Source: Woeseiaceae bacterium
GTDB lineage: Bacteria > Pseudomonadota > Gammaproteobacteria > Steroidobacterales > Woeseiaceae
Reading direction: 5' to 3'
DNA: 64,000 bases
Assembly: GCA_028280615.1 (NCBI GenBank)
Contig: JANQLK010000001.1
Span: 23,793 to 87,792, forward strand
In this document: piece by piece, positions 1-13,406 of the stretch
Layout of the letters: every line of letters begins with the position of its first letter
Position numbering within the stretch: position 1 is the stretch's first letter
Position numbers and translations under genes: made by a program
The notes under the pieces: model-generated
The model's input: only the letters and a program-made list of their open reading frames with translations
Told to the model about the DNA's origin: nothing
Database searches by the model: none

Positions 1-621
1 CTGCCGCCACTTCACGGAGCGCAGCTTCTCCTGGTCGGACATATTGCGGCGGCGAATGATATTGACGATCGTATCGTCGAGCATGCTGGCCGAGCGGTCC
101 ACGAGGATCAGCGTGCGTCTGCCATCGAGTTTCAGGCCGGTCAGGTACTGGCGCGCGCCCTGCCCCTGCTCGTCGAAGGTTCGGATCTTGGTGCCCTCGT
201 CCTGCTCCTCTTCGGCGGCCTGAATGAGCCGTGCCACCTCCTCCTCGAGCGACTTGATGTCCGACTGCAGCCGTTCGACCGCCTCGATCTGCGCAACCGT
301 GTCCTTGTCGTAGCGGGACAGTTCGAGCTTGAGTTCCTCGATCAGCGCCAGTATTTGCGCGATCTGGCCCTCGGCCGTTCGCTTCTGGTCGTCGAGCACC
401 TCGATCGTGTTCTTCGCGAGCACGAGGTTCTTGCGGCCCTCGAGGATCTCCCGCTCCAGCCGGGTCGTCTCGGCCATGAGGTTGGTCGGGTCCTGTTCGG
501 TCGTTTCGCGCACCTGCGCGTTGATGATCATGAAGAACAGGATCACGGCGCCGAAGCCACAGCTCATGCAGTCGAGAAACGACATGCTGAAGACCTCGAC
601 GGGGCGCCGCTTACGAGCCAT
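1..621 (-). CDS. Partial CDS (N-terminal ~207 aa; C-terminus lies beyond the window edge). Single-pass membrane protein with a TolR/ExbD-like basic N-terminus and an Asp-containing TM helix, then a long coiled coil and the start of a vWA-like domain.
   Basis: My own translation of the minus strand from ATG at 621 gives MARKRRPVEVFSMSFLDCMSCGFGAVILFFMIINAQ. A heptad-rich segment follows (IEELKLELSRYDKD...IKSLEEEVARLIQ), then RTLILVDRSASMLDD, where DRSAS fits the DxSxS MIDAS motif. It is absent from the ORF track because it runs off the window. Its start overlaps the upstream stop by 11 nt (ATGGCTCGTAA). Confidence 0.7.
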   Translation of the reverse strand, partial: MARKRRPVEVFSMSFLDCMSCGFGAVILFFMIINAQVRETTEQDPTNLMAETTRLEREILEGRKNLVLAKNTIEVLDDQKRTAEGQIAQILALIEELKLELSRYDKDTVAQIEAVERLQSDIKSLEEEVARLIQAAEEEQDEGTKIRTFDEQGQGARQYLTGLKLDGRRTLILVDRSASMLDDTIVNIIRRRNMSDQEKLRSVKWRQ

Positions 622-1975
622 CGGACGCCTCCGTCGTAATCAACCTGAGCTCGAACCCCGGCGTACCGACCCGGATGAGATCGCCGACCTGGAGCACCGC
701 GGAACCGTCGAAGCGATGACCGTTCAGGAACGTTCCGTAGCGGCTGTGATCGCGGACGACGCACTGTCCGTTCTCGACCGCCAGCGAACAGTGCTTGCGC
801 GACATGCCCGGCATCGCCTCGGGGAACTCGATATGCCGCTCACCCTGCGCCGGCTGTGAGCCCAGATTCAAGGGTTTGCCATTGATCGCGTAGGCCGTGT
901 TGCCGAACAGGACGTGTGTCGGTCGGCCACCCGCGGGCGTTTGCGCATCGCCGCCGACCTCGACGGGCGCCTGGTCCCAGGGCAGCTGGCGGACGAGGCT
1001 CACGCCGCCGCCCGGCGTGTGTTCCCGGGTGCGCTTGAGGGCGCCTCGGGCGGCCGCTCCGGTCTCGAGCAGGAACACCTCGCCGCCGACGCGGGCCTTG
1101 AGCATATCCGCCAGCCCGGGCAGCGATGCCGCGCGATCCGAGAGCTGAATCGCCGGCGTCTCGTCAGCCCGGCACAGCGTACGAAGCTGGCTGACGATCC
1201 GCTGGTAGACGGGCGCCGCCGCAGACACGAGCGCCAGGGCCTCGATGTCCGCCGTGTGTTCGATGCCGCGGTACTCGACGCCGACCGTAATCGTGCCGCC
1301 AGCCGACGCGTTGGCAAGCCAGCCCGGCAGGCGATCGAAGAGCAGCTGCTCGGTATCGGCCGTGTGCAGCGGATCGAATCGCGACTGCTGGACGAATGCC
1401 TCGGCCAGCGTGCGTATCCAGGCGTCGTAGAGGTGGCTCAGGCCAGCCGCTTCGACCAGCTCGGCCTTCTGCATTTGCGCCTGCCCCTCCTGGCCGATTC
1501 GGGTCATGAGCGTCGTGTGCAGGCTCAGGTCGACGTGCACGGGGGCGGCATCGACATACTGGCGGCGCGTCGCGGCGACGGCTGCGTCCACGAGCGACGC
1601 AACCGGAATACTGAGCTCGTTGCAAATCCCCAGGAACAGGCCCAGCTGCTCGGCCTGCATGTAGTGCGGCACGACGACCGTGACCCGGTCACCGTGCTGC
1701 CGGGCGACGGTCCAGAGCTGCTCGAGCTGCCGGCTGACGAGATCCGCGGACGACAGGTGGCGAAATCGATCGTCCGGCAGCGCATCCGTACTCAGGCTGG
1801 ACCAGAAATGCGAATGGATGCGGCGCGGCAGCATCCGCGCGTTGGCGTAGGCCTCTTTGCCCGTCGTAAGGCCGCCGTCCTCGAGCAGGGCGAAACCGGG
1901 CTCACGATAGACGACGGCCGAGTCGTTCAGTACGGATACGGCAGCATCGTTGATGTCGAGCGCAAGCAGCGTCAC
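611..1975 (-). CDS. Actin/Hsp70-like (ASKHA-fold-like, degenerate) N-terminal domain fused to a C-terminal FHA domain
   Basis: 454-aa ORF. The N-terminus LLALDINDAAVSVLN sits where Hsp70 has IGIDLGTTNS. The C-terminus MSRKHCSLAVENGQCVVRDHSRYGTFLNGHRFDGSAVLQVGDLIRVG carries FHA hallmarks (SRxH, NG, hydrophobic beta strands). Confidence 0.7.
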   Translation of the reverse strand: MTLLALDINDAAVSVLNDSAVVYREPGFALLEDGGLTTGKEAYANARMLPRRIHSHFWSSLSTDALPDDRFRHLSSADLVSRQLEQLWTVARQHGDRVTVVVPHYMQAEQLGLFLGICNELSIPVASLVDAAVAATRRQYVDAAPVHVDLSLHTTLMTRIGQEGQAQMQKAELVEAAGLSHLYDAWIRTLAEAFVQQSRFDPLHTADTEQLLFDRLPGWLANASAGGTITVGVEYRGIEHTADIEALALVSAAAPVYQRIVSQLRTLCRADETPAIQLSDRAASLPGLADMLKARVGGEVFLLETGAAARGALKRTREHTPGGGVSLVRQLPWDQAPVEVGGDAQTPAGGRPTHVLFGNTAYAINGKPLNLGSQPAQGERHIEFPEAMPGMSRKHCSLAVENGQCVVRDHSRYGTFLNGHRFDGSAVLQVGDLIRVGTPGFELRLITTEASDGS

Positions 1976-1991
1976 CCGGGACCCCTCGGCC

Positions 1992-2792
1992 TCAGTCGGC
2001 CTTCATGTGGCGAATCAGATTGACGTCGAGATACGTCTCGCTGTCGAAGACGAGCCGCTCCTGCAGGAGCTGCAGCTGATGTACGAGGAACATCAGGAAG
2101 ATACTGATCAACAGCGCAATGAACGTCGAGTTGAACGCGACACCAAGGCTCTGGGTCACGCCCGCGATGTCGCCCTGAACGGCCTTGTCGGCCTGCGCAA
2201 GCGCCTCGCCGATACCGCGAACGGTGCCGATGAAGCCGATCGAAGGGATGGCCCAGGAGATGTAGCGAATCATCGACAGCTCCGACTCGAGGCGCTCGGC
2301 TTCCGACTCGAACACCGTGTGCGTGCTGCTCGACACATCCTGGATGTTACGGGTCGAACTGAAACGGCGCAGCGCGTTGAGCAGCGCGCGCGGCAGCAAC
2401 ATCCGCTGACGGTCTTCGGGCAGCGCCTGGACCTGGCGTGCGAACTCGCGCGTGTCCTCGGGCAGTATTCGCATGCCTTCGGCGACCGGCACGAGGTCAG
2501 TTTCGAGCAGCCGGCGTTCCGACAGTATCGATGCGGCCTTGTAACCCATGATCGCGAGCGCCCATAGCATCAGGATGAAACAAGCCTCCTGCTCGAGGTC
2601 CTTGATCAGCACCCAGACGGAACGCTCGCGGACGTAGTCCGGGTCGGCCGCTGCGGCCGCGTTCTGTTCCTCGATGATTTGCGCCGCGTTGGGCCGCACC
2701 GCGGACACGTAAAACGCATGTACGACGATCACCGCGATGATCAGCGCGAACAGCTGGAATACGAATTCAATGGGAATGTTCTTTCTGTTCAT
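1992..2792 (-). CDS. MotA/TolQ/ExbB-family proton-channel-like membrane protein (atypical)
   Basis: 266-aa ORF with N-terminal TM helices, a cytoplasmic insert and C-terminal helices AIPSIGFIGTVRGIGEALAQ and FNSTFIALLISIFLMFLV. These compare with the canonical ExbB at 63614-64000 (LPLLGLLGTVSGMIKVF; ALVTTMAGLFTALSGLYF). Confidence 0.75.
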   Translation of the reverse strand: MNRKNIPIEFVFQLFALIIAVIVVHAFYVSAVRPNAAQIIEEQNAAAAADPDYVRERSVWVLIKDLEQEACFILMLWALAIMGYKAASILSERRLLETDLVPVAEGMRILPEDTREFARQVQALPEDRQRMLLPRALLNALRRFSSTRNIQDVSSSTHTVFESEAERLESELSMIRYISWAIPSIGFIGTVRGIGEALAQADKAVQGDIAGVTQSLGVAFNSTFIALLISIFLMFLVHQLQLLQERLVFDSETYLDVNLIRHMKAD

Positions 2793-2813
2793 CGGCAGGC
2801 TCTGCTTAACGAT

Positions 2814-3083
2814 TCAGATATCGGTCGGAAACGGTATCGACTGATCGGCATCGATTTCCTCGGTCGGACGAAAGTCCTCCTCCTCGATGTCGACGTAGGA
2901 CTCGTCGTCGATCACGAGTTCGTCGCCGGTCCCTGCGGCCTCTTCGGCCTCTTCGGCCTCGGCCGGCCCGTTCTCACCAGCGGCCGGCTCCTCGGCCGTC
3001 TCGTCATCGTCCTGCGGCAGCGCCTGCGCGCCGAGCGCCAGGCAGCCCAGGATCAGTAGCAGATAGACTCGTATGTCACGCAT
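2814..3083 (-). CDS. Small secreted (possibly lipidated) highly acidic protein
   Basis: 89-aa ORF. Signal peptide MRDIRVYLLLILGCLALGAQA (an ILGC lipobox-like motif or an AQA cleavage site). The mature part is extremely rich in D/E (DDDETAEEPAAGENGPAEAEEAEEAAGTGDELVIDDESYVDIEEEDF). It sits 22 nt upstream of the MotA-like gene. Confidence 0.55.
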   Translation of the reverse strand: MRDIRVYLLLILGCLALGAQALPQDDDETAEEPAAGENGPAEAEEAEEAAGTGDELVIDDESYVDIEEEDFRPTEEIDADQSIPFPTDI

Positions 3084-3181
3084 TGCAGTGCTCTCAAGCT
3101 TGTCTCCAGTATCGTTCGACCACCAGCCCCCGGAATTGTCGCATTAAATTGGCTGCAAGCGGTCCGCTTTCAGCTTCTCGC

Positions 3182-5605
3182 TTACTCCGCGTTGCGGACG
3201 ATCCGGAAGCCGACGTCGTCGCGCGCATCGGCGCCGTAATCGCGATAGCTCAGGCGCAGCTCGGTCATGCCGGCATGCCGCCAGCTGCCGCCGCGGATGA
3301 CGCGTGCGTTACCCGACGACGGTCCGACCGGGTCGACGACAGCCTGGGTCTGGCCGGGCGTCGGGACCGTGTAGTAATCGTTGACCCATTCGGCAACGTT
3401 GCCGCCGCCGTCGTAGAGCCCCAGGGCATTCGGGCGGAACGAGCCGACCGGCGCCGTCGACGTATAGCCGTCGTCGTAATTGAGCAGAATCGACGTCAGT
3501 ATGTCACCGCCGCTGCGATCCGCGAAGTTGCCCGCATCGCCTTTCGGAGGCCACTGGTCGCCCCAGGCGTACTTGGTCGTCGTCGGCCGGCCGGCGTAGC
3601 GCAGCGCCCATACCCACTCGGCTTCGGTCGGCAGCCGATAGCCGTTCGGGAACGGCAGGATCGCCTCATACTGACCGAACTTTTCCTCGTAGACGGGCGT
3701 GAGGCCCTCGCTGCGACTCAGGTGATTGCAGTACTCGGCAGCCTGCTGCCAGGTGACGGAGGCCACGGGGTTGCGGTCCCCGGCCAGCGATGCATGGGTC
3801 GCGCCACCCGAGTCGTGTTGCGCCTGGAAGGTTGCGAACTCACGGTTCGTCACTTCATGAATGCTGATGAAGTACGGCCTGGTCAGCGTGACGGGCACGA
3901 GCACCTCGTTGGCGCGCCGCCCCTGCACGCTTCGCGACGCACCCATCATGAACGTGCCCGGCTCGACGCGCCGCATGGTCTTGCCGTCCGGCGTTTCGAT
4001 CGTCGTCTGGATGCTGGCCCGCGCGATCTCCTGTTCCGAGCGCAGCCGTGCCGTCAGCGTCTGCGGATAACCCGGCCGCGGCGTCACGCTCTGGCTCCAC
4101 GAGGCGTAGCCGTCGCGGCGAACCTCGATGCGATGCGGCGCGGCGCTCAGGTTGAGCGTCGTGGTGCCGGTGCCGCGCAGCCTGCCGTCGACGAGCACCG
4201 ACGCGTCGGCGGGCTGCACGTTGACCGTCACGCGCCCCGTCTGTGCCGACAGGTCGACGGTAATCGCCTCGCTGGCCGCCGACCTGAGCCGCACCTGGCG
4301 CGAAGTCGAACCATAGCCGGCCTTGGAAAGGCCGATGCGATAGTCGATGTCGGGCGCGAGATCCAGCGTAATCGGCGACTGGCCGCGATAGCGGCCGTTG
4401 ACGAGAACATTGGCGCCGCGCGGGATCGTATTCACGCGTAGCCGGGCGTCCGCTTCCTCGAGCGTTATGAGCGGCAGACTCTTGGGCGAGTTGGCCACGG
4501 TCTCGACGGTGCCGTCCCATGCCTTGTAGCCCTCGGCCACCACGCTCAGCTGATGCTCACCCTCGACGAGTTCGATGACGGCCGGCGTCGTGCCGACGGC
4601 CTCCTCACCCGAGTAGATCGTCGCGCCCGCAGGCTCTGACGTGACGCTGACCTCCGCCCAGCGGGGCACGAGCTGCACGGCGAGGAGTTCCTCGCGGCCG
4701 AGGCCTTCGAACTGTATGACGTCGTCGTACGGCAGATAGCGCGCCGAGCGTACGCCTACGGTGTGACTGCCCGGCTGCAACTCGAATCCGGCAATTGGCG
4801 CCGCGCCGACCTCGTTGCCGTCGATCGACACGATCGCCTCGTCCTCGGCGTCGACGGCGACCGACAGCTTGCCCGGCAGCTTGCGGAGCGACACCGAGAC
4901 CGTCGTCGTCGGCTCATCGCGGACGACGAACGACTGACGCATGTCGTAGTAGCCGCGTTTTTCGACGTTGAGCGTATGCTCGCCCTGCCGCAGCAGCATA
5001 CGATCGCCGAGCGGCAGCTGAAACCAGCCGCCGCTTACGGACAGCGAGTCGACGTCGGCCGGCCGGACGTCGATCTCGACCGACTTCGCGGTAAACAACA
5101 GGTAGGACGCCGTGCCCAGGATCAGCGCGCCGGCGACGAGGACGTTCCGGAGCGCGTGATTGGCGGAACCGGTCTCGACGGGTTTGCTCTCGGTGGCGCG
5201 CTTGAAGGCCGTCGGCGCGATGGTTTCAGCCTCGGCCGCATCGGCTGCCGACGGCAGCTCGGGCGGCGCCGTCACATAGGCGCTGTCCTCGAGCCTGACC
5301 TCGAGTACGAGCTCTTCACCGAGCCGAACCGTGAGCCGGCTGCCGTAGTACCCGAGCTCGTCGCCGTCGGCCAGGCGTCGGCTCGCGGTCAACGCTTCAC
5401 CGTTGACCGTTGCACCCGAGTCGCGGCCGACCGACTGGACGAAAGGGGCATCGTCGAGAATATCGAGCATGACGACCGGGCTGCCACCCGGCCCGGGCAG
5501 GCGAAGATCGCTGTCGCTGCCCGTGCCGATCCGGAGCGGCAACTCATCGGCGGCGACGCGGCGCTCGCCCTCGACGTCGCGGATGATCAGGTGGTCGAGA
5601 CTCAA
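3182..5605 (-). CDS. FHA domain - TM helix - about 5 PEGA-like repeats - FGE/SUMF1 (formylglycine-generating-enzyme-like) domain that lacks the catalytic cysteines
   Basis: 807-aa ORF. N-terminal FHA-like segment (LRIGTGSDSDLRLPG...TVNGEAL...LADGDEL). TM helix ALRNVLVAGALILGTASYLLFTA. Repeated about 50-aa units (e.g. ARLRVNTIPRGANVLVNGRYRGQSPITL). C-terminal FGE-sulfatase signature GTFMMGAS...HEVTNREFATF...GYRLPTEAEWVWA...GNVAEWVNDYY...RVIRGGSWRH. The apparent TTG start overlaps the kinase stop (TTGA). Confidence 0.8.
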   Translation of the reverse strand: MSLDHLIIRDVEGERRVAADELPLRIGTGSDSDLRLPGPGGSPVVMLDILDDAPFVQSVGRDSGATVNGEALTASRRLADGDELGYYGSRLTVRLGEELVLEVRLEDSAYVTAPPELPSAADAAEAETIAPTAFKRATESKPVETGSANHALRNVLVAGALILGTASYLLFTAKSVEIDVRPADVDSLSVSGGWFQLPLGDRMLLRQGEHTLNVEKRGYYDMRQSFVVRDEPTTTVSVSLRKLPGKLSVAVDAEDEAIVSIDGNEVGAAPIAGFELQPGSHTVGVRSARYLPYDDVIQFEGLGREELLAVQLVPRWAEVSVTSEPAGATIYSGEEAVGTTPAVIELVEGEHQLSVVAEGYKAWDGTVETVANSPKSLPLITLEEADARLRVNTIPRGANVLVNGRYRGQSPITLDLAPDIDYRIGLSKAGYGSTSRQVRLRSAASEAITVDLSAQTGRVTVNVQPADASVLVDGRLRGTGTTTLNLSAAPHRIEVRRDGYASWSQSVTPRPGYPQTLTARLRSEQEIARASIQTTIETPDGKTMRRVEPGTFMMGASRSVQGRRANEVLVPVTLTRPYFISIHEVTNREFATFQAQHDSGGATHASLAGDRNPVASVTWQQAAEYCNHLSRSEGLTPVYEEKFGQYEAILPFPNGYRLPTEAEWVWALRYAGRPTTTKYAWGDQWPPKGDAGNFADRSGGDILTSILLNYDDGYTSTAPVGSFRPNALGLYDGGGNVAEWVNDYYTVPTPGQTQAVVDPVGPSSGNARVIRGGSWRHAGMTELRLSYRDYGADARDDVGFRIVRNAE

Positions 5606-7962
5606 ATGGGTTCCTCGCAGCGAACGACAATGGGCTGCATGTCGATTTCGGGCGCGACGCGAAACTCGAGGCGCACGTCCCGGAAACCGGGGCGACTGCC
5701 GACGGCAACGTAGGTCCCCGGGCGCAGCGATAGTTCGGTCGATGCAAAGCTGCCCAGTTTACCAACCCGGTAAATCGAGACGTCGGTCGCGTTGTCGCTG
5801 ACGATCTCGACGGTCAGCGGCGTCGCGGCGCGCTTGAGAAGCCTCGAGAGCTCGTCGCGGGCCGTCGTCAGCCGCGGCCCGATGTCGCCCTGCCGCGTGA
5901 TGTCGACAACGAGCGTCGTGGCCGCCTGCATCGTGCGCGGCGAACTCAGGCTGTCGGGATCTTCGATGTAGGCATCGATCTGCTCGTGCAGTTCGACCAT
6001 ACCGTCGGCGCGCGCGAGCCCTTGTTTCGCGAACTGGAGGTTACCGTCCAGCTTCAGTATCTCGCCGTAGGTCCCGGCCGCCGCCTGCCACTCCTCGGCG
6101 GCCTCCTGTTGCTTGGCTTGCGCCTCCAGCGCCATGATCTGCTTGAGCCTCAGGCCCTGGTCGACCTGCAGCAGGCCATCGGCCGGCTCGGGCGACGAAG
6201 GCTTGAGCTGCTGCGCAATTCTGAACGCCGCGCGCGCCGACAAGAGATCACCCTCGGCCAGCGCGTTGAGGCCCTCGCTCATGCGCGCGTCGAAGGCCAA
6301 TTGTCCGGCCGTCTCGCGGCTGCGCTCAAGCGCTTCGCGAGCGGGTTGCCACTCCGGATCGAGATCGAGCGCCGCTTCGAAGCGCTCGATCGCCGCGTCG
6401 AGCGCAAGCTCGCGCTCCAGTGACAGGCCTTCGTTGGTCATGGCAATGACGTCATCGAGATTCCTGGCTCGTGCGAGCCCTGCTCGGGCAGGACCGTGAC
6501 TCGGCGTGATCGCGACCGCGAGTTCGTAGAGCCGCAGCGCCTCCGCCGAGTCGGCCGCGTCGAGCGCCGTTTCGGCATCGGCGAGCGTCCGCTCGAACAC
6601 GCGGTCGACCTCCTCGAGCAGCGGCTCGACGAGCTCGATGGCCCGCTCGTAGTTTTCTTCGGCGAGCGCGAAGTCACGTTCGAGGTAGGCTTCGTCGCCT
6701 GACGCGTAGGCGTCTTTCGCCTGCTGCCATGCGACCCCGCCCCAGCGCTCGACCGCGCGCCCCTCCAGCGTCCGGGTCTTCGCCAGCAGTTCGCCGAGCG
6801 TCTCGTCGACCTGCTGACGGCTGAGTACGCGCTGATCTCTAGCCGGCCGCGATTCGGCGGCGGGCGCCTCGGAGTCCGGCTCGGACTCGGACCCAGGCAC
6901 GGATTCGGTTTCCGTCGCCGCGGCGGCGGGCTCGGCATCGGCAGGCGGCGCGCTGGTTTCGTTCACGGCGGACGGCAGCAGGAATACGACCCCGAGCAAC
7001 ACCGCGACCAGCACGGCCAGCGCGATGCCAACCGTTCGCGTGCTCAACCCGCCCTGCGGCGTCGACTGTGGGGCGGACGCTTTGGCCGGACGCGGGCCGC
7101 GATCGACGACGAGCTGATCGGCCGCGATCGTGGCGTCGCCGCCCGGCCCGGACAGGCCGAGCAGTTTGCGGCTCGCAGCGCCACCCTGAATACCGGCGTC
7201 CGCCAGCGCATCGACGACCGCTTCGGCATCGGGACGCGCGGCGGCATCCTTGTCGAGCATGGCCGCGACCAGCGACGTAACGGCAGGCCCGGGCGAGCTG
7301 CCGTCGTTCGACACGAGCGGGGGTGGCACGAGTTTCACGATGTCCTCGGCCGTCGTCGCCGAGCCGTACGGCGAGCGGCCGGCTACGAGCTCGTAGATCA
7401 GTCCACCGAGCGCGAAAACATCGTCCGCCGGCGTGGGCGCCTCGCCGGCGAGCTGCTGCGGCGACAGGGCGATCAGCGAACCGCCGCCGACGGGATCGCC
7501 GGCTGCCGCGGCCACGCCGAAATCGATCAGGTAGGGCGCACCGTTCTGATCGAACAGTACGTTCGCTGCCTTGATGTCCCGGTGAACGACGCCCTTGCCA
7601 TGCGCATAGCGAAGCGCATCCGCGACCAGCGCCATCGGCTTCAGGATCTCGTCCGCCGGCGCAGCGGATAGCGCGGACGCATCGGGTCCGTCGATGTACT
7701 GCATTGCATAGAACGGACCGTCGGCGTCTTCGTGAAACTCGAAGACGCGCGCGATATGCGCGTGCATGAGACGAACACTGAGCTGCCACTCGCGACGCAG
7801 CATGTCGGCGGGCAGTGCCGGATCCGTAACGATCTTGAGTGCGACGTCGGTACCGGTCATCCGGTCGCCGGCACGCCAGACCTCGGCAGTGCCCCCGGCC
7901 GCGAGCCGGTCCGCAAGAGTATACCGGTCTGCGAGCTTCAGACCGCTCTTCAGGTCACGCAT
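5602..7962 (-). CDS. Hanks-type Ser/Thr protein kinase with one TM helix and a periplasmic TPR region plus a C-terminal PEGA-like module
   Basis: 786-aa ORF. Kinase motifs are VALKIV, VVHRDIKAANVL and DFGVAAAAG. TM helix VGIALAVLVAVLLGVVFLLP. TPR-like helical repeats follow. C-terminal LTVEIVSDNATDVSIYRVGKLGS...LRPGTYVAVGSRPGF. Confidence 0.85.
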   Translation of the reverse strand: MRDLKSGLKLADRYTLADRLAAGGTAEVWRAGDRMTGTDVALKIVTDPALPADMLRREWQLSVRLMHAHIARVFEFHEDADGPFYAMQYIDGPDASALSAAPADEILKPMALVADALRYAHGKGVVHRDIKAANVLFDQNGAPYLIDFGVAAAAGDPVGGGSLIALSPQQLAGEAPTPADDVFALGGLIYELVAGRSPYGSATTAEDIVKLVPPPLVSNDGSSPGPAVTSLVAAMLDKDAAARPDAEAVVDALADAGIQGGAASRKLLGLSGPGGDATIAADQLVVDRGPRPAKASAPQSTPQGGLSTRTVGIALAVLVAVLLGVVFLLPSAVNETSAPPADAEPAAAATETESVPGSESEPDSEAPAAESRPARDQRVLSRQQVDETLGELLAKTRTLEGRAVERWGGVAWQQAKDAYASGDEAYLERDFALAEENYERAIELVEPLLEEVDRVFERTLADAETALDAADSAEALRLYELAVAITPSHGPARAGLARARNLDDVIAMTNEGLSLERELALDAAIERFEAALDLDPEWQPAREALERSRETAGQLAFDARMSEGLNALAEGDLLSARAAFRIAQQLKPSSPEPADGLLQVDQGLRLKQIMALEAQAKQQEAAEEWQAAAGTYGEILKLDGNLQFAKQGLARADGMVELHEQIDAYIEDPDSLSSPRTMQAATTLVVDITRQGDIGPRLTTARDELSRLLKRAATPLTVEIVSDNATDVSIYRVGKLGSFASTELSLRPGTYVAVGSRPGFRDVRLEFRVAPEIDMQPIVVRCEEPI

Positions 7963-7976
7963 TGCCGTTGAGCCAC

Positions 7977-9212
7977 CTACGACGTCGGCTCGGTGGCCCG
8001 GACCGGAGCCCCGACTTCGATCTCCTCGGTGAAACCGGTTTCGGCCTCGTAGAGTTCCCTGAGAATCTTGCGCCAGGACTCGTATTGCGCTGCGGCCGTG
8101 CCCGTGAGACGGCGCGCCTGGCCCTCGACGTTGACGACCATGGGAGCGGCCTCCGAGCCGAACGAAACGGCCAGTTCCTCAATGGCTTCGACGTGTATCG
8201 ACGCCTCCGTGTTGCGAGTGATACCGCCCATGATGGTATTCAAGCCCTCGGCGATACCGATATTCTGCAGGCTGCGCTTGACGTTCCGCTCCGTGCGGCT
8301 GCTGCTGTCGGTGTCGACGCTCAGCGACGCCGCGACGACCACGACACCCATGAGCGTCTGCAACGCAGCCGATCGCTTTACCTGCCGGTAGTTGACGGCT
8401 TCCTCGCGGGACGCCTTGCGATACGCGTGGTACGGAATCGCAATCCCGTAGTAGAAATTGGCGTAGTGCTCGTTCAGCATGTCGACGACCAGGCGGTCGC
8501 GTTCGCGGATTCGCCGCAGCCGGTCGACCGCCGGATCGTTATCGGCCGGCAACCGCGAAACCGTTACGATGCCGTCCTCGTCGGTGGCGAGGTGGTTGCC
8601 GTAGACCTGCGGTGACATGTCGCCGAAGAACTTGAGTTCCGAAATCTGCCGCAGGTCCTCAACGTAGTCGGTGCCGAGCGACTCCGCGTGAGCATGTATG
8701 TCGTTGGCGATATCGTTGAATACTTTCTGGTACGGATCCTGGCGCCGATCGCGGTTTTCGGAGTAGGACGACACGCCCGTCTGCGTTTCGTAGTCTTTCT
8801 CATACCATTCGCGGCCGCTCGTATCCGAAACCGTTACCTCGAGTTCGACGAACTCGCCGTCGGATTTCTTGATGCGAGCGTTGACGATGACGTCGGTGAA
8901 GGCGTCGGCGGACGGCAGCACGCGAACCGCGCCCCAGTGTCCCGTGCCCTGCATCGTGTTCTTGAGGTGGTAGGCAAGGTAGCGCGCCTCGGCCTCTCGA
9001 ATCTCGGTGTGTATGCGCGTTTTCTCGGGTTGGTTGTCCTCGGGGATACCCGCGTCGAACTCGATGATGCCGATGTCGAGCAGCCGCGATTCGGCCTTCT
9101 CGCCGTCAGCAACGACCAGCTCGGTCTCGTCCGCGTTGATTACTTCGTTGACCGTGCACCCGCCGGCGGCGAATGCCGCGGCAATCATGATTACAAGCCT
9201 TCTCGTCATCAT
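7977..9212 (-). CDS. Lipoprotein of unknown function
   Basis: 411-aa ORF. Signal peptide with lipobox MMTRRLVIMIAAAFAAGGC. There is an internal hydrophobic stretch LQTLMGVVVVAASLSV. I recognise no family. It lies 15 nt upstream of the kinase gene. Confidence 0.6.
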   Translation of the reverse strand: MMTRRLVIMIAAAFAAGGCTVNEVINADETELVVADGEKAESRLLDIGIIEFDAGIPEDNQPEKTRIHTEIREAEARYLAYHLKNTMQGTGHWGAVRVLPSADAFTDVIVNARIKKSDGEFVELEVTVSDTSGREWYEKDYETQTGVSSYSENRDRRQDPYQKVFNDIANDIHAHAESLGTDYVEDLRQISELKFFGDMSPQVYGNHLATDEDGIVTVSRLPADNDPAVDRLRRIRERDRLVVDMLNEHYANFYYGIAIPYHAYRKASREEAVNYRQVKRSAALQTLMGVVVVAASLSVDTDSSSRTERNVKRSLQNIGIAEGLNTIMGGITRNTEASIHVEAIEELAVSFGSEAAPMVVNVEGQARRLTGTAAAQYESWRKILRELYEAETGFTEEIEVGAPVRATEPTS

Positions 9213-9230
9213 CCTGGTTTGCTTAAGATC

Positions 9231-10580
9231 CTAGTTTGCTGTCGAAATCCCTTTGTACTTGCGGTACTCGTCCCAAAGCCGTTCGCGCAGCGCGGGGTCC
9301 TCTTCGACCAGCGCAGCCTCGCGCAGCTGGCGGGCAATGATATCGTCGTCGATCATGGACGGAACGTCGTCGGGCGTTCGCTCTTCGATCTGTTCTCGTG
9401 AGAGGCCCGCCATCGGTGAGGCCTGGCCACCGCCGACGGAACCGCTGCCGGAGCCGCCGCCCTCGCTGCCACCCATCGACGTCTGCGATCCGAGGCCGAT
9501 CAGTTCGCCCGCACCGCGTCCGCCCTCTTCTCCCTCGATGTCGAAGCCCTCCATGACCCGGCCGGCGCCGGCAATTGCGCGCTGTTCTTCCTGCAGGGTC
9601 TCGTCGAAACCGCCAATCGACTCGTCGAGCTCACGCCCGAGGCGGGCCGCGCGTTCTTCGGCGCTTTCGCCGGGAAACTCACCGACGCCACCGGCGCCGC
9701 CGGTTCCGGTCGTGCCGCCGCCCGGCGATCCGCCGCCGCCTCCGGACGCACCGCCTCCGGACGCACCGCCACCGGATGCACCGCCTCCGGAAGCACCTCC
9801 GCCGGAGGCACCACCGCCACCGGCCGCGCCGCCGCCGGACGATGAGGATGACGACTGGCTTTCGCTGGACGAGGAGCTTTCACTGGACGACGAACCGCCG
9901 CCACCGCCGCCGCCGATGCACTCGCCAGCCTGGCCCATGCCGCCGACGCCGCCCGGCAGCGCGCCACCGTCGCCGCACTCCCCGCTGCCGCCGTCTTCGT
10001 TCGGATCCGAGAACGGATCGTCTTCGCCTTCTCCTCCGCCGGAGCCGCCCGTCGCACCTGACTGGCCCTCGGCGCCGCCTCCCGCACCCTGCTCGCTCGG
10101 CGGCGGTGGAATTTCGCCGACGGATCCGCCGCCGCCCTGGCTGCCCGCGGAACTCTCAGCCCCACCGCCGGGCGCGCCGCCCTGCTGTGGAAAGCCACCG
10201 GACGCGCCGCCGCCCGATGGCGATTGACTACCGCCCGACGGCGACTGGCTGCCACCGGAGGGTGACTGACTGCCGCCCGACGGCGACTGACTACCGCCAG
10301 ACGGCGATTGGCTTCCGCCCGACGGGGACTGGCTGCCGCCCGACGGCGATTGACTGCCACCCGAGGGTGACTGGCTGCCGCCCGACGGAGGCGACGGTGG
10401 CGACGGTGGCGATGGCATGCCGCCACTGGGCGGCGACGGCATACCCGCAGGCGGCGTCGTCGGTCCTCCGGAACGAGTCATTGACGTATTGCAACCCGCA
10501 AGCACCAGCGTCGTGGCACTGACCAGTAGCAGCGGCTTGAGCCATGTCGCGTTGTTGCGCGCGTAATGTCTGGAATGCAT
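9231..10580 (-). CDS. Low-complexity Gly/Ser/Pro-rich lipoprotein with tandem peptide repeats and a conserved-looking helical C-terminus
   Basis: 449-aa ORF. Lipobox LVLAGC. Contains 8x GGSQSPS, 5x GGGAS, poly-Ser/Glu tracts and the C-terminal DDDIIARQLREAALVEEDPALRERLWDEYRKYKG. Confidence 0.65.
   Translation of the reverse strand: MHSRHYARNNATWLKPLLLVSATTLVLAGCNTSMTRSGGPTTPPAGMPSPPSGGMPSPPSPPSPPSGGSQSPSGGSQSPSGGSQSPSGGSQSPSGGSQSPSGGSQSPSGGSQSPSGGSQSPSGGGASGGFPQQGGAPGGGAESSAGSQGGGGSVGEIPPPPSEQGAGGGAEGQSGATGGSGGGEGEDDPFSDPNEDGGSGECGDGGALPGGVGGMGQAGECIGGGGGGGSSSSESSSSSESQSSSSSSGGGAAGGGGASGGGASGGGASGGGASGGGASGGGGGSPGGGTTGTGGAGGVGEFPGESAEERAARLGRELDESIGGFDETLQEEQRAIAGAGRVMEGFDIEGEEGGRGAGELIGLGSQTSMGGSEGGGSGSGSVGGGQASPMAGLSREQIEERTPDDVPSMIDDDIIARQLREAALVEEDPALRERLWDEYRKYKGISTAN
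9738..9812 (-). repeat. Five tandem 15-bp in-frame coding repeats (GGGAS x5)
   Basis: Plus-strand units are gcctccggacgcacc x2, gccaccggatgcacc, gcctccggaagcacc and tccgccggaggcacc. Confidence 0.85.
10215..10382 (-). repeat. Eight tandem 21-bp in-frame coding repeats (heptapeptide GGSQSPS x8)
   Basis: Plus-strand units are cgatggcgattgactaccgcc / cgacggcgactggctgccacc / ggagggtgactgactgccgcc and so on. The peptide repeat is identical in all 8 copies, and the DNA differs only at synonymous positions. Confidence 0.9.
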
Positions 10581-10805
10581 GTTTGAATGCCCTTTGCGAC
10601 GAAAGCTGGCGACGCCTTCGTTCGAGATTTCGCTACGGCCTGAAACGCCCGGCGGATAAGGATTTGAGCCGCGCGGCCGGCCCGGAGTTCCGTCGAATTA
10701 CGTCAAACGCCCGACGTGCCGACGCTCGTCCGATCAGGAATGACGATAATACGGGCCCGGCGGCCGATCAATACCTGATCCGCGTAGGCCGCTCCGGAAC
10801 GACAG

Positions 10806-11663
10806 CTAGGCCGGTTTCCTGAAGATTATCAGAGACATATCGTCGGGCTTGCTCGGTTCGCCCTGTGCCGCTGTCGCCATTCTGCGCTGAACTTCGGCAA
10901 CGACCGCATCCACGGCCGTATCGATGCTCCCCTTGCGCGTCATCTCGACGAGCTCGTCGAGATGGAGATTGTCCGTGACGCCGTCGCTTGCCAGCACGAC
11001 CGTGTCGCGCGCCTTGAGTTCGGCACTGGCGCCGACGTCGATACTCATGTCGGGCGTGCCGATGAAATTGGACACGAGGTGGCGGTCCCGGTGGTGCAAG
11101 GCATCGCGTTCATCGAGAAACCCGGCCTCGACGGCGAAGCCCGTCGGGGAATGCGCCGTGGTCTGCAGTCGAATCAGGCCGCGCTGACCGATCACGAGCG
11201 CCTCCGAGTCGCCGACCTGGTAGGTCCGCGCGAGGCGCCCCTCGATCGTGACCACGGTTAGCGTCGTCGCCGATCCGTTACTCAGGTCGCGAACGGCCGT
11301 GTTGGCCGCTTCGATGCCGTCGAGCACGGCCGTCCTCAGAAGCCGGGTCTGTTCCAGCGATGTCCTGAGCGATGCGGCCAGGGCATCGACGGCCGTACTC
11401 GATGCTCGCTTGCCGGCCGGCAGTCCGCCGGCGCCGTCGGCCACGACCAGGACCGCGGCCTGCGGTCCCCAGGGTATGGCCGCCACCGTATCCTCGTTTT
11501 CGGTCTCCTTCATGGGCGAGCGCCGCGTGTAGGCCACGAGCCTGCCGCCGGCGACCTCGAAAGACTGCCGGTCCGGCGCCACGGCGCCGTCGAGGACCAC
11601 GGTGCCGTCGGGCCTTTCCGCGCCGACGCTAGCCACGGCTGACGGGCTCCCGGCACCACGCAC
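10806..11663 (-). CDS. PP2C-family Ser/Thr protein phosphatase
   Basis: 285-aa ORF with VLVVADGAGGLPAGKRASSTAV, YQVGDSEALVIG and VVLASDGVTDNL. An alternative GTG start at 11636 would give an 8-nt overlap (GTGGCTAG) with the upstream kinase stop. Confidence 0.85.
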   Translation of the reverse strand: MRGAGSPSAVASVGAERPDGTVVLDGAVAPDRQSFEVAGGRLVAYTRRSPMKETENEDTVAAIPWGPQAAVLVVADGAGGLPAGKRASSTAVDALAASLRTSLEQTRLLRTAVLDGIEAANTAVRDLSNGSATTLTVVTIEGRLARTYQVGDSEALVIGQRGLIRLQTTAHSPTGFAVEAGFLDERDALHHRDRHLVSNFIGTPDMSIDVGASAELKARDTVVLASDGVTDNLHLDELVEMTRKGSIDTAVDAVVAEVQRRMATAAQGEPSKPDDMSLIIFRKPA

Positions 11664-12921
11664 AGTAATGCCAGTGCTCCCTGGCGATGCCCCATTTGCA
11701 GCGGCGGCAGCGGCTGCGGCTGCCGGGCAGCGGCCAGGGCTTGCGGACCTTGCTCCGGCACCACGGGCAGTAGCGCATGAACGGCATCAGGTCGCCCCGG
11801 CAACGGGGGTTTGCGCATTTGCTCGTGTAGCGCTTGTCGCGATAGCGGCGCGGCGTCTCTTCGACGAAGCCGGGCCCCCAGCACCAGGGGCAGTAGTCCC
11901 AGTCATTCTTGACTCCCCGCTCGCAGCGCGGGCAGCTCGAGCTTTCGCGTGACTCGACGCCGCGGGTCGGGTCCTCGACGCCGCACCACGGGCATGCGTG
12001 CATGCTTTCGGCAACGGGCCCCTCGCAGCGCCGGCAGGCATGCCGCGTGTCGAGCGCCGAGCGATACCGGCGCTGAAAATCTCGCCAGTCGGACCCGACC
12101 GTGTCGCCGGCCTCGAACCTGGCTCCCCGCGCGCGGCCGGGTTTCTGTTGCCTCGCGTGGCTGTTCAGGCGCTCGAAGTGCGCCAGCATCTCGATGCAGG
12201 TTCGGTAGCGCCTTGCAGGGTCGAGCTGAATGGCCTTGCGCAGCATCGCGACGAACTCCGGCCGCACGCGCGCGGTCAGCTTGTCGTAGCCCTTGAGCGG
12301 CCACTCGAACGGCCATTCCGGGAGTACCCCGGAGAACAGCCGGTAGATGACGAGGCCGGCCGAGAACACGTCGGACTGGAATTTCGGGCGGCCCATGGCC
12401 TGTTCCGGAGCGATGTAGTCGATCGTACCGGAGCCCGACGCCTTGAGCGTGCGCAGGCTGAGCTTCGCGAAACCGAAGTCCGCGAGCTTGAGACGGTTGC
12501 CCGGGAACAGGATGAAGTTCTCGGGCTTGACGTCGCAGTGGATAATCTTGTGCTCATGCGCATACGCCAGGCTCGCGAGCGCCTGGCCGGCCAGATCGAT
12601 GGCGCGGGCCGTCGAGATGCGGCGCTCGAGCCGGTCCGCCAGTGACTGCTCGCCGAGCTCCATGGCGATGACGAAATCGTCGCCGATGTATTCGGCATTG
12701 GTAACCGAGAGAATGTTCGGATGCCTGAGCCTGACGGCGACCTGCACCTCGTGCAGCAACTCCTCGTGATCCACGTCCTCACCGGCGCGCGGTACCTTGA
12801 GTGCAACGCGGCTTCGGTGGATCGTGTCGTAGGCGACGTACACCGTGGATAGCGGACCACTCGAGAGTCGCGACAGAATGCGATACTTGCCAATCTTCTG
12901 CCGTGCTTTCAGCAAGGACAT
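11629..12921 (-). CDS. Cytoplasmic Hanks-type Ser/Thr kinase (non-RD, HCD catalytic loop) with four tandem C-terminal zinc-ribbon motifs
   Basis: 430-aa ORF. Motifs are VALKVP, IIHCDVKPENFIL, LADFGFAK and GTIDYIAPEQ. The C-terminus holds CRRC..CPWC, CPRC..CPWC, CANPRC..CPWC and CRRC..CAWC. Confidence 0.85.
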   Translation of the reverse strand: MSLLKARQKIGKYRILSRLSSGPLSTVYVAYDTIHRSRVALKVPRAGEDVDHEELLHEVQVAVRLRHPNILSVTNAEYIGDDFVIAMELGEQSLADRLERRISTARAIDLAGQALASLAYAHEHKIIHCDVKPENFILFPGNRLKLADFGFAKLSLRTLKASGSGTIDYIAPEQAMGRPKFQSDVFSAGLVIYRLFSGVLPEWPFEWPLKGYDKLTARVRPEFVAMLRKAIQLDPARRYRTCIEMLAHFERLNSHARQQKPGRARGARFEAGDTVGSDWRDFQRRYRSALDTRHACRRCEGPVAESMHACPWCGVEDPTRGVESRESSSCPRCERGVKNDWDYCPWCWGPGFVEETPRRYRDKRYTSKCANPRCRGDLMPFMRYCPWCRSKVRKPWPLPGSRSRCRRCKWGIAREHWHYCAWCREPVSRG

Positions 12922-13031
12922 CCGGTCGTACGTCTACTGCGTTGAGGTTTCGCATCATTGGTTCTGGGCCGTGCGGAGTCAAGTCGAACGACGCTTGCTA
13001 CAATGCGCGCTTTTCTGCCAGGGGCATCGAG

Positions 13032-13406
13032 GTGGGCAAACCCGGCAACACCGGTTTTCGCCGTGTTATTCGCGCGACGCGCTACTCGGCGCAGGGCCTC
13101 GCGCACGCGTGGAAACACGAGGCCGCCTTCCGCCAGGAGCTCGTCGCCTCGGCGCTGTTGCTACCGGTTGCCTACTGGCTCGGCCAGACGCCCGTCGACA
13201 GGCTGTTGCTTATCGGTAGCTGCGGTCTCGTCCTGATCGTCGAGCTCCTGAATTCGGCCGTCGAGGCAGTGGTCGACCGAATTTCGGGAGAAGCCCACGA
13301 GTTATCGGGGAGGGCGAAGGATCTGGGCTCGGCCGCGGTGTTTTTGAGTCTGCTGTTGAGCGGCGCCGTGTGGGGCATCATCGCCTGGCAGCGTTTCATG
13401 CCCTGA
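13032..13406 (+). CDS. dgkA: Diacylglycerol kinase (prokaryotic DgkA)
   Basis: GFRRVIRATRYSAQGLAHAWKHEAAFRQE...VELLNSAVEAVVDRISGEAHELSGRAKDLGSAAV matches E. coli DgkA closely from memory. I chose the GTG start at 13032 so that the length is about 124 aa. Confidence 0.85.
   Translation: MGKPGNTGFRRVIRATRYSAQGLAHAWKHEAAFRQELVASALLLPVAYWLGQTPVDRLLLIGSCGLVLIVELLNSAVEAVVDRISGEAHELSGRAKDLGSAAVFLSLLLSGAVWGIIAWQRFMP

Follow-up and report, generated by a model that had tools for sequence, protein, structure and literature searches.

A conserved eleven-gene cluster of Woeseiaceae with the parts of a possible phosphorylation-regulated trans-envelope motor

Here we describe a gene cluster at one end of a 64,000-nucleotide (nt) stretch of DNA (the window below; G+C 63-69%) from a Woeseiaceae bacterium (GenBank assembly GCA_028280615.1, contig JANQLK010000001.1). 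Ten open reading frames (ORFs) fill positions 1-12921 of the window, every one on the minus strand; they are numbered g1 to g10 in the direction of transcription, and an eleventh gene, g11, lies beyond position 1. We give roughly even chances to the view that this locus encodes a conserved trans-envelope machine, driven by proton flow and regulated by phosphorylation. Its role would most likely be the maintenance or surveillance of the outer membrane or the envelope, and not defence. This view is built on what was observed in gene content, domain identities, key residues, the fold of the g9 protein and the conservation of the gene set. An earlier reading of the window, made from its letters without database searches (the sequence-only reading), had proposed a phosphorylation-gated machine energised by ion-motive force for surveillance, signalling or conflict. 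Its phosphorylation-linked and ion-driven trans-envelope part remains the best reading, while the conflict or defence part disagrees with vertical inheritance, with the lack of effector genes in the cluster and with the generic nature of the kinase matches in PADLOC.

The engine of the proposed machine would be g8. Its match to MotA_ExbB (PF01618, 7e-15) and its 4 predicted transmembrane (TM) helices agree with the first description of it as a MotA/ExbB-like protein. In a profile alignment to E. coli TolQ (PDB 8odt), T190 (motif GTV) and T223 (motif NST) of g8 stand opposite the Thr residues of the TolQ GTV and 'AT' motifs, which we take to be T145 and T178, and both of these lumen Thr of g8 are invariant in its orthologs. 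The cytoplasmic loop of g8, placed by homology to the TolQ loop preceding TM2, has three conserved T-x-x-hydrophobic motifs: T114 (TREF), T147 (TRNI, present in 99% of 83 sequences) and T157 (THTV).

The g10 protein begins with a basic N-terminal tail, followed by an ExbD/TolR-like trans-pore helix (membrane helix sequence FSMSFLDCMSCGFGAVILFF) with an invariant Asp (SFLDCMSCGFGA), a coiled coil of ~110 residues and the start of a vWA domain. The first ~35 vWA residues lie within the window, including the metal ion-dependent adhesion site (MIDAS) motif DRSASM, and the full vWA domain was seen in orthologs, so that the TolR-like helix, coiled coil and vWA order first read from this fragment is correct. 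The region past position 1 was reconstructed through relatives; an exact look-up of g9 gave only a 3-kb Logan contig. In the relatives L002-L004, whose g9 is 64-75% identical to that of the window, g10 has 367 amino acids (aa) and is followed by its paralog g11 of ~330 aa. The cluster does continue past position 1, as had been expected, and it consists of 11 genes and not of ten, the vWA protein having a paralogous partner. Wherever the sequence of a locus is sufficient, the two paralogs, g10 and g11, are adjacent and ~22-24% identical. The MIDAS motif of g11 is DTSGSM. In an alignment of 14 sequences, D17 of the motif SFLDCxxCGFGA and the DxSxS of the MIDAS are invariant in both paralogs, and the window copy of g10 also carries D17. 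This helix motif resembles 'PLLDVL' of TolR and 'PFIDVM' of ExbD. ExbD, TolR, MotB and OmpA-like domains were found in none of the g1-g11 products (Pfam, NCBIfam). A cluster of Arg and Lys at the N-terminus suggests, by the positive-inside rule, that the N-termini of g10 and g11 are cytoplasmic and that the coiled coil and the vWA head are periplasmic.

To trace the cluster across different taxa we used g9. Clustered at 50%, g9-like proteins number 2241 representatives at E<=1e-3 and 641 at E<=1e-30, with matches over the full length down to ~30% identity. The scan of species-representative genomes gave 323 loci, and the 80 closest of them were kept for detail. All 80 are metagenome-assembled genomes labelled Woeseiaceae, Gammaproteobacteria, Proteobacteria/Pseudomonadota or uncultured bacterium; the taxonomy of the distant carriers is poorly resolved, with one cluster member labelled Steroidobacteraceae. 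Synteny was counted in 67 loci with full flanks, including eight distant loci that were fetched through g9 homologs. The genes g4, g5, g6, g8, g9, g10 and g11 are colinear in 66 of them. The trio of MotA-like, FHA and vWA genes, to which the sequence-only reading had pointed as the possible conserved neighbourhood, therefore holds together in distant relatives too. The membrane kinase g5 and the FGE-like gene g6, whose co-occurrence had also been put in question, travel with the trio; the g1 kinase and the PP2C gene do so in 57 of the 67 loci only.

In the distant loci g9 is 31-38% identical by alignment (median 35% by tblastn), and the GC content ranges over 35-71%. All eight keep nine genes: a g3-like gene, g4, the kinase, the PEGA-FGE gene, the small acidic gene, the MotA-like gene, the Hsp70-like-FHA gene and two vWA genes. 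The most conserved protein of the system is g8, with a median identity of 87% in close loci and 69% in distant ones; in the latter g11 has 55% and g10 50%, against ~35-41% for g4, g5, g6 and g9. Selective constraint, as judged from these identities, appears highest on the motor parts. A downstream flank of Pterin_4a, PALP and acetolactate synthase genes recurs in most relatives examined, two distant loci included, which indicates vertical inheritance at a largely conserved chromosomal site. No match to g10 was found in the plasmid collection. One scaffold of the TARA ocean metagenome (L088) has the complete nine-gene core in a planktonic marine genome of 35% GC, with the same downstream flank as in Woeseiaceae of 66% GC. 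This copy and its shared flank suggest that the system is old in the lineage and has survived a large change of composition.

The g9 protein consists of an Hsp70 nucleotide-binding domain (NBD) fold at residues ~1-320 and an FHA domain at ~350-450. The former had been described as actin/Hsp70-like, and this can now be narrowed to Hsp70-like. The AlphaFold2 model made with a diverse alignment of 68 sequences has a pLDDT of 91.6 and a pTM of 0.88; it supersedes a model with a shallow alignment (pLDDT 58). Foldseek search of the PDB returned the NBDs of DnaK, Ssz1, mortalin and GRP78 with E values of 5e-17 to 1e-14, and the target TM-score was 0.65-0.75 for NBD-only chains. The sequence profile of g9 also found Hsp70 NBDs in the PDB, weakly. 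The FHA domain (Pfam, 3e-11) has invariant S392, H395 and N418. According to the model, g9 is an Hsp70-NBD fold fused to a canonical FHA domain, which replaces the substrate-binding domain.

The kinase g5 matches Pkinase at 2.5e-28 and has the HRD motif of RD kinases together with the DFG and catalytic Lys motifs. It has one TM helix (residues 311-329) and a periplasmic region of ~455 aa with weak TPR matches (TPR_2, 2.5e-6). A membrane kinase with periplasmic TPR repeats had been expected here, and this stands, with the weakness of the TPR matches noted; the PEGA domain expected at its C-terminal end was not detected in the domain search. The g5 gene is conserved in all eight distant loci. 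In one of them (L092, GCA_029287575.1, positions 4205-6484 of the locus) its homolog is a pseudokinase: the catalytic Lys is changed to Arg, HRD to HRS and DFG to GFA. This locus keeps the remaining operon and the canonical FHA domain of g9 despite the damaged kinase, so a scaffolding role of g5 must exist alongside catalysis.

The g6 protein joins a TM helix (residues 155-173), four PEGA stretches (2.9e-47) and an FGE-sulfatase domain (Pfam, 3.5e-42); these parts of its first description stand, though with four PEGA stretches where five had been counted. The C-terminal 'RGGSW...' region has no Cys pair, and from this absence and from what is established on the active site of FGE enzymes the FGE-like head is probably non-catalytic. 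The N-terminal part of g6 had been read as an FHA domain. Its Pfam E value of 0.017 is below the cut-off, and hhalign against the FHA domain of g9 gave 66% probability (E 5.7e-5), which is weak support for a degenerate, FHA-like domain. Between this domain and the TM helix lies T112, which is invariant (100%). FHA domains commonly prefer pT-x-x-I/L; T112 of g6 and the T-x-x-hydrophobic motifs of g8 are for this reason candidate docking sites of the g9 FHA domain.

Three smaller or less familiar components complete the core. The lipoprotein g3 has an LAGC lipobox with Asn at +2 and, after it, a disordered linker that is long and rich in Gly/Ser/Pro; its C-terminus is short, acidic and helical, and conserved. 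This agrees with its first description as a repeat lipoprotein. Its two tandem arrays are in frame: a 21-nt array at 10209-10388 (8.6 copies) encodes (GGSQSPS)n, and a 15-nt array at 9736-9841 (6.9 copies) encodes (GGGAS)n. No family match was found in Pfam or NCBIfam. Among relatives the conservation of g3 is limited to the C-terminal part and its length varies from ~155 to ~535 aa, which shows that the length of the linker is evolutionarily plastic. The second lipoprotein, g4, was called an orphan from the beginning and remains one: nothing was found for it in Pfam, NCBIfam or the PDB, a profile search against the PDB included. Its Cys19 is kept in at least 90% of sequences, and a hydrophobic Gly-rich segment lies at residues 281-299. 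A homolog search gave 2016 homologs, all 'hypothetical' and 60-92% identical, and the gene is present in all eight distant loci with a median identity of 38.5%.

The acidic secreted peptide recognized in the sequence-only reading, g7, indeed has a signal peptide and 28 Asp/Glu in 89 aa, with an Asp/Glu-rich linker, and matches no family in Pfam or NCBIfam. Its C-terminus is near-invariant in an alignment of 17 orthologs, three distant loci included: F-x-P-[ST]-[EDQ]-...-F-P-x-D-I-COOH. Conservation of this kind is typical of short linear motifs that mediate binding. An acidic side chain is the usual ligand of a MIDAS site, and the conserved acidic tail thus makes g7 a candidate ligand of the vWA heads.

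In contrast to these genes, g1 and g2 are lineage-specific accessory genes outside the conserved core. Both were identified correctly in the beginning. The g1 protein is a kinase (Pkinase 6e-34, DZR 8e-8, Pfam) with the non-RD catalytic loop HCD, the catalytic Lys, DFG and APE motifs and four CxxC...CxxC zinc ribbons in its translation; g2 matches PP2C_2 (Pfam, 4.9e-15) and, under its cut-off, the Stp1/IreP model (1.4e-27). They are present upstream in 57 of the 67 full-flank loci and missing from ten, namely L064 and L075 among the close loci and L085-L092, which are all eight distant ones. The combination of kinase and PP2C was the basis on which the cluster had been likened to the threonine-phosphorylation pathway of type VI secretion systems (T6SS) and to the TerY-P triad, and this basis falls with their absence. 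On the g2 side of the 225-nt spacer between g2 and g3 the gene content varies, and on the g3 side it is conserved.

How might these components work together? In the machine that we propose, g8 would form a pentamer-type channel, with no ExbD, TolR or MotB gene to accompany it, and a g10/g11 heterodimer would fill this channel with its trans-pore helices bearing the proton-binding Asp. Proton flow would turn or piston the two-stranded g10/g11 axle, and the vWA heads would pass the force to partners near the peptidoglycan or the outer membrane. The likely periplasmic partners are the acidic tail of g7, the PEGA stalk and FGE-like (C-type-lectin-like) head of g6, and the lipoproteins g3 and g4. 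Through its periplasmic TPR sensor g5 would respond by phosphorylating cytoplasmic Thr residues, the candidates being T114, T147 and T157 of g8 and T112 of g6. With its canonical FHA domain g9 would dock on the phospho-Thr sites, and its Hsp70-NBD-like body would scaffold or gate the motor. The g1 and g2 genes, added upstream in most loci of the Woeseiaceae type, may provide an extra on/off layer.

Several points weigh against this proposal. Because g5 is a pseudokinase in one lineage, phosphorylation cannot be universally required, and the distant loci hold no cognate phosphatase. The FHA-like domain of g6 is without the Arg and His of the S-R-x-H phospho-Thr pocket and is missing in two distant relatives. 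The glycine-rich phosphate-2 loop of g9 (D-L-S-L-H153 stands in its place) and the adenosine GG are lost in a low-confidence hhalign alignment to E. coli DnaK; by these losses g9 may be a scaffold and not an ATPase, and ATP binding may be absent. The vWA matches in Pfam are weak, at best 3.7e-6 (VWA_2, in L002), and below the cut-off in several orthologs, and the ExbD-like helix of g10 and g11 is recognized by motif and analogy only, no hidden Markov model detecting it. The agreement of the motor core g8/g10/g11 with the motor family predicted in PMC12204202 is one of described features, and it covers each defining feature that was compared. Finally, we infer the 5:2 stoichiometry and assembly, the topology with periplasmic vWA heads, every interaction, the choice of phosphorylated partners, the ligands and the physiological role.

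A bolder form of the proposal, which we offer tentatively and consider rather unlikely, is that the locus represents a new class of rotary 5:2 motor, with a heterodimeric axle carrying two metal-dependent vWA 'hands' and gated directly by Ser/Thr phosphorylation. Here a g5-type kinase would phosphorylate TxxI-type motifs on the MotA-like loop, onto which the Hsp70-fold/FHA protein would clamp. If true, such a phospho-gated rotary motor would mechanically probe or remodel the outer envelope of Woeseiaceae. To our knowledge, no other ion-driven 5:2 motor is under eukaryote-like phospho-signalling control. Ion-driven 5:2 motors (MotAB, ExbBD, TolQR, GldLM, AglRQS, ZorAB) are increasingly recognized as a common source of power for envelope processes, and the main questions about them concern their activation and the structures that they pull. 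The locus offers concrete candidate sites: Asp17 of g10 and g11, the MIDAS serines, T114, T147 and T157 of g8, T112 of g6 and the F-P-x-D-I tail of g7. Woeseiaceae are among the most abundant bacterial groups of marine sediments. Given this dominance and the presence of the cluster in 323 species-representative genomes of Woeseiaceae and relatives, its function likely matters for the envelope biology of the lineage, which is ecologically important and has been little studied.

The layout of the cluster (Table 1) is as it was first described: ten minus-strand ORFs with tiny gaps or overlaps and two larger gaps, one of 225 nt and one of 98 nt (3084-3181). The other gaps are of 14-21 nt, and the overlapping pairs are g1/g2 (35 nt), g5/g6 (4 nt) and g9/g10 (11 nt). 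The TTG start of g6 overlaps the stop codon of g5. Such start/stop overlaps suggest translational coupling. A site scan of the minus strand found no terminator-like sites inside the cluster, and no promoter-like or terminator-like site in the 225-nt spacer, where an internal promoter may be located. The sigma-70-like match upstream of g1 agrees at 9 of 12 consensus positions and is weak evidence, since 1 site was found against 1.5 expected by chance. Rfam and tRNA scans of the window were empty.

Table 1. Positions in the window of the genes and other features of the cluster
Feature	Position	Strand	Description
g1	11629-12921	minus	soluble Hanks-type Ser/Thr kinase, four C-terminal zinc ribbons
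g2	10806-11663	minus	PP2C-type Ser/Thr phosphatase
g3	9231-10580	minus	lipoprotein, Gly/Ser/Pro-rich linker
g4	7977-9212	minus	orphan-family lipoprotein, ~410 aa
g5	5602-7962	minus	membrane Hanks-type kinase with periplasmic TPR region
g6	3182-5605	minus	FHA-like, TM helix, PEGA stalk, FGE-sulfatase-like head
g7	2814-3083	minus	small secreted acidic protein
g8	1992-2792	minus	MotA/TolQ/ExbB-like channel subunit
g9	611-1975	minus	Hsp70-NBD fold and canonical FHA domain
g10	1-621, cut by window end	minus	N-terminal 207 of 367 aa: trans-pore helix, coiled coil, vWA start
spacer	10581-10805 (225 nt)	minus	separates g1-g2 from core g3-g11
sigma-70-like promoter match	12954-12982	minus	33 nt upstream of g1 start

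Upstream of g1 lies dgkA on the opposite strand (DAGK_prokar, 4.6e-36), followed by ordinary metabolic genes; being divergently transcribed, dgkA marks g1 as the beginning of the cluster. The longest ORF of dgkA is 12801-13406 on the plus strand. The DAGK_prokar match spans only residues 94-194 of it, and the true start is therefore probably near 13080. Downstream of g11, in several loci and not in all, we noted an OmpA-family peptidoglycan-binding protein at a distance of 0.2-4 kb (L003:13629-14363, L002:15681-16400, L092:17290-18027). The L002 and L003 copies have a glycine-zipper/DUF456 region and a coiled coil together with an OmpA domain. As the motor itself is without a peptidoglycan-binding domain, this protein might be a loosely linked motor partner. 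Elsewhere in the window, at 21196-23499 on the minus strand, a 767-aa ORF has Cytochrome_C7, paired CXXCH motifs and an MtrC/MtrF-like domain together with HEAT and TPR repeats; this multihaem cytochrome c fusion is unusual and unrelated to the cluster.

Could the same genes be explained by a system already known? One alternative is envelope-damage signalling of the TagQRST-PpkA-PppA-Fha1 type, where the lipoproteins and the FGE-like protein would activate the TM kinase and the FHA proteins would act as readers. The motor would then do no more than supply energy to the sensor or reset it, and the real output would be encoded in another part of the genome. We consider this explanation improbable. 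Many parts do match. The T6SS threonine-phosphorylation pathway of Pseudomonas aeruginosa has, as does our locus, a TM Hanks-type kinase with a periplasmic sensor, PP2C (here in Woeseiaceae), an FHA reader, a periplasmic vWA domain, lipoprotein(s), a periplasmic accessory protein and the logic of sensing the state of the envelope. TagR we regard as a protein of the FGE-sulfatase family. The periplasmic vWA domain of PpkA interacts with TagR (PMC3224232), TagQ is a lipoprotein of the outer membrane, and TagR is located in the periplasm (PMC10482370). Unlike in that pathway, the vWA domains here are on the motor subunits and not on the kinase, PP2C is outside the core, the FHA domain is fused to an Hsp70-like domain and a proton motor is present. 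Moreover, the motor parts are more constrained than the sensor or kinase parts, the kinase is catalytically damaged in one lineage, the phosphatase is absent from distant loci, and neither a transcription factor nor any other domain for an output is encoded in the cluster. T6SS core genes (TssA-M, Hcp, VgrG, by Pfam families) were found neither in the window flank nor in the ±10 kb flanks of related loci, and the TagH/VI_FHA model gave 17.5 bits against a cut-off of 120; membership in the pathway was rejected on these grounds. The sequence-only reading had seen no T6SS and no ter genes, and none appeared in the gene tables of the window or of the flanks. The TerY-P triad was rejected as well: PP2C and the soluble kinase are absent from ten loci that keep the vWA genes, ter genes are lacking, and the vWA proteins are not soluble but anchored in the membrane, with a head that is predicted to be periplasmic.

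A machine for surface motility or adhesion, like Agl-Glt of Myxococcus or gliding in Bacteroidetes, is distinctly unlikely too. In such a machine the motor would drive vWA adhesin-like heads and a GldJ/GldK-like FGE scaffold in bacteria attached to sediment particles. Agl-Glt is built from a TolQR-like motor with the FHA-bearing TM protein GltG docked on it, along with TPR proteins, lipoproteins and the vWA adhesin CglB; the predicted docking site of an FHA domain is the cytoplasmic face of the AglR pentamer (PMC11761067). An FHA domain, TPR proteins, lipoproteins and a vWA protein are shared with our cluster, and the TolQR-type 5:2 motor of Agl-Glt has a heterodimeric plug (AglQ/AglS), as would the assembly that the genes suggest here. 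In PMC12204202 it is speculated that a related vWA force-transducer family may serve gliding. Here, however, no Glt homologs or outer-membrane barrels are detectable, a kinase is present, and the vWA domains are on plug subunits tethered to the inner membrane, from which a coiled coil of ~110 residues is unlikely to reach the cell surface. The window and the ±10 kb flanks of ~90 loci showed no homologs of GltA-K, no outer-membrane beta-barrels, no GldL/M/N and no other genes of the type IX secretion system (T9SS).

The best NCBIfam match of the g6 FGE-like domain is the T9SS/gliding ring lipoprotein model GldK/PorK (1.7e-29), and GldJ also matched. The match has 103 bits, where the cut-off is 350, and shows no more than that the FGE fold is shared. 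GldKLMN (PorKLMN) does resemble our cluster in two features: a non-catalytic periplasmic protein of FGE-sulfatase fold is encoded beside a 5:2 proton motor, and the inner subunit of the motor extends a long periplasmic arm. In contrast, g6 is anchored in the inner membrane by its TM helix and PEGA stalk, has no lipobox and is no outer-membrane lipoprotein ring, g8 is MotA/TolQ-like and not GldL-like, and there is no GldM or GldN. With this score, a TM anchor instead of a lipobox and no linked gldLMN, membership of g6 in GldK/PorK was rejected.

Much less probable still is a Zorya-like system for anti-phage defence or conflict, in which the MotA-like motor would sense perturbation of the envelope by phage and pass it to a kinase response. 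Zorya uses a MotAB-like 5:2 motor in a non-flagellar role, with a long coiled-coil element attached, and the kinase, PP2C and vWA genes recall the TerY-P triad. Both kinases, g1 and g5, match defence models of PADLOC (PD-T4-6, mad6, MkoA) and MADS6 of NCBIfam. These matches are to generic kinase domains and lie far under the cut-offs of the families (MADS6, 120 bits against 460); g2 has one weak PP2C match (PDC-M21C, 1.6e-5), and g3, g4 and g6-g10 have no match in PADLOC. The coiled coil of Zorya is the cytoplasmic tail of ZorA, ZorB has a peptidoglycan-binding domain, and the effector genes ZorC/D/E are required there; none of these effectors was found here, nor was any nuclease, protease, NADase or other effector gene. 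The presence in 323 species-representative genomes, the conserved order and the similar downstream flanks are the signature of a vertically inherited housekeeping system and not of a defence island, and no plasmid match supports mobility. Zorya and the other catalogued defence systems were rejected, with no match to ZorA/B/C/D or to a system-specific PADLOC model. The MoxR-vWA/GTPase conflict systems (PMC7159879) were rejected too, since their core genes are different and the paper has no 'MotA'. Chance juxtaposition of unrelated same-strand genes has practically no probability and is effectively refuted for g3-g11: the 225-nt and 98-nt gaps and the dispensability of g1-g2 in some relatives would fit it, but g4-g11 are colinear in 66 of 67 loci, in relatives down to ~33% identity with GC of 35-71%, and start/stop overlaps are present.

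We return to the ion-driven, phosphorylation-regulated machine and its nearest relatives. Against the Hsp70 superfamily, g9 has the NBD fold and lacks the substrate-binding domain; in the low-confidence alignment the canonical ATP-binding loops DxGTT and DLGGGT and the adenosine GG are not seen. With Tol-Pal and Ton (TolQRA-TolB-Pal, ExbBD-TonB) the cluster shares a proton channel in the inner membrane, which belongs to the MotA/TolQ/ExbB family and has an Asp on the helix in its pore, and a force that would cross the periplasm to partners associated with the outer membrane, lipoproteins among them. Unlike those systems, it has no TolR/ExbD periplasmic domain, TolA/TonB, TolB or Pal; the long stalk and the vWA head belong to the in-pore subunits themselves; g8 has one more TM helix at its N-terminus (4 TM, as in MotA); and a layer of kinase and FHA proteins is present. 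Membership in Tol-Pal/Ton was rejected: g8 scores far under the equivalog cut-offs (TolQ model 30 bits against 221, ExbB model 22 against 135), and TolR, TolA, TolB and Pal domains are absent.

The closest relatives of the motor core were predicted from a seed in Idiomarina loihiensis (PMC12204202, Mol Biol Evol 2025, Fig. 4c-d) and are motors that include trans-pore-helix vWA (TPH-vWA) proteins. There, pentamers of a TolQ-like protein are paired with TPH-vWA proteins, found 'predominantly in heterologous pairs', which have a TolR/ExbD-like trans-pore helix with a conserved Asp and occur without tolR/exbD. AlphaFold 3 models place TPH-vWA inside the TolQ-like pentamer, with the Asp adjoining the Thr ring; the proteins are mainly from Proteobacteria and Verrucomicrobia, and no function was assigned to them in that paper. 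Our cluster, likewise from Proteobacteria, shares the following features. The TolQ/MotA-like gene is linked to vWA genes, with only g9 between g8 and g10; there is no tolR, exbD or motB gene; the vWA protein has an N-terminal single helix with the conserved Asp (D17); the vWA proteins form a heterologous pair, g10/g11, of which the window itself shows g10 alone; and the lumen Thr are conserved (T190 and T223 of g8). In contrast, the description of TPH-vWA motors mentions no kinase, FHA, Hsp70-like, FGE-like/PEGA, acidic peptide or lipoprotein components: in the main text of PMC12204202 'kinase' occurs zero times and the sole match to 'FHA' is 'FhaC'. A literature search found no follow-up to this paper. 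The view that the architecture belongs to no named system should thus be divided, because the motor core had been predicted, while the full nine-gene system, with its phospho-signalling layer, Hsp70-fold FHA protein, acidic peptide and candidate phospho-sites, appears to be undescribed. The locus is a conserved and compact example of such a motor, with a vWA-headed stalk pair in place of ExbD/TolR-type subunits, and to the motor description of 2025 it adds a Hanks-type kinase, two FHA-type modules, an Hsp70-fold, an FGE-like protein, an acidic peptide and two lipoproteins.

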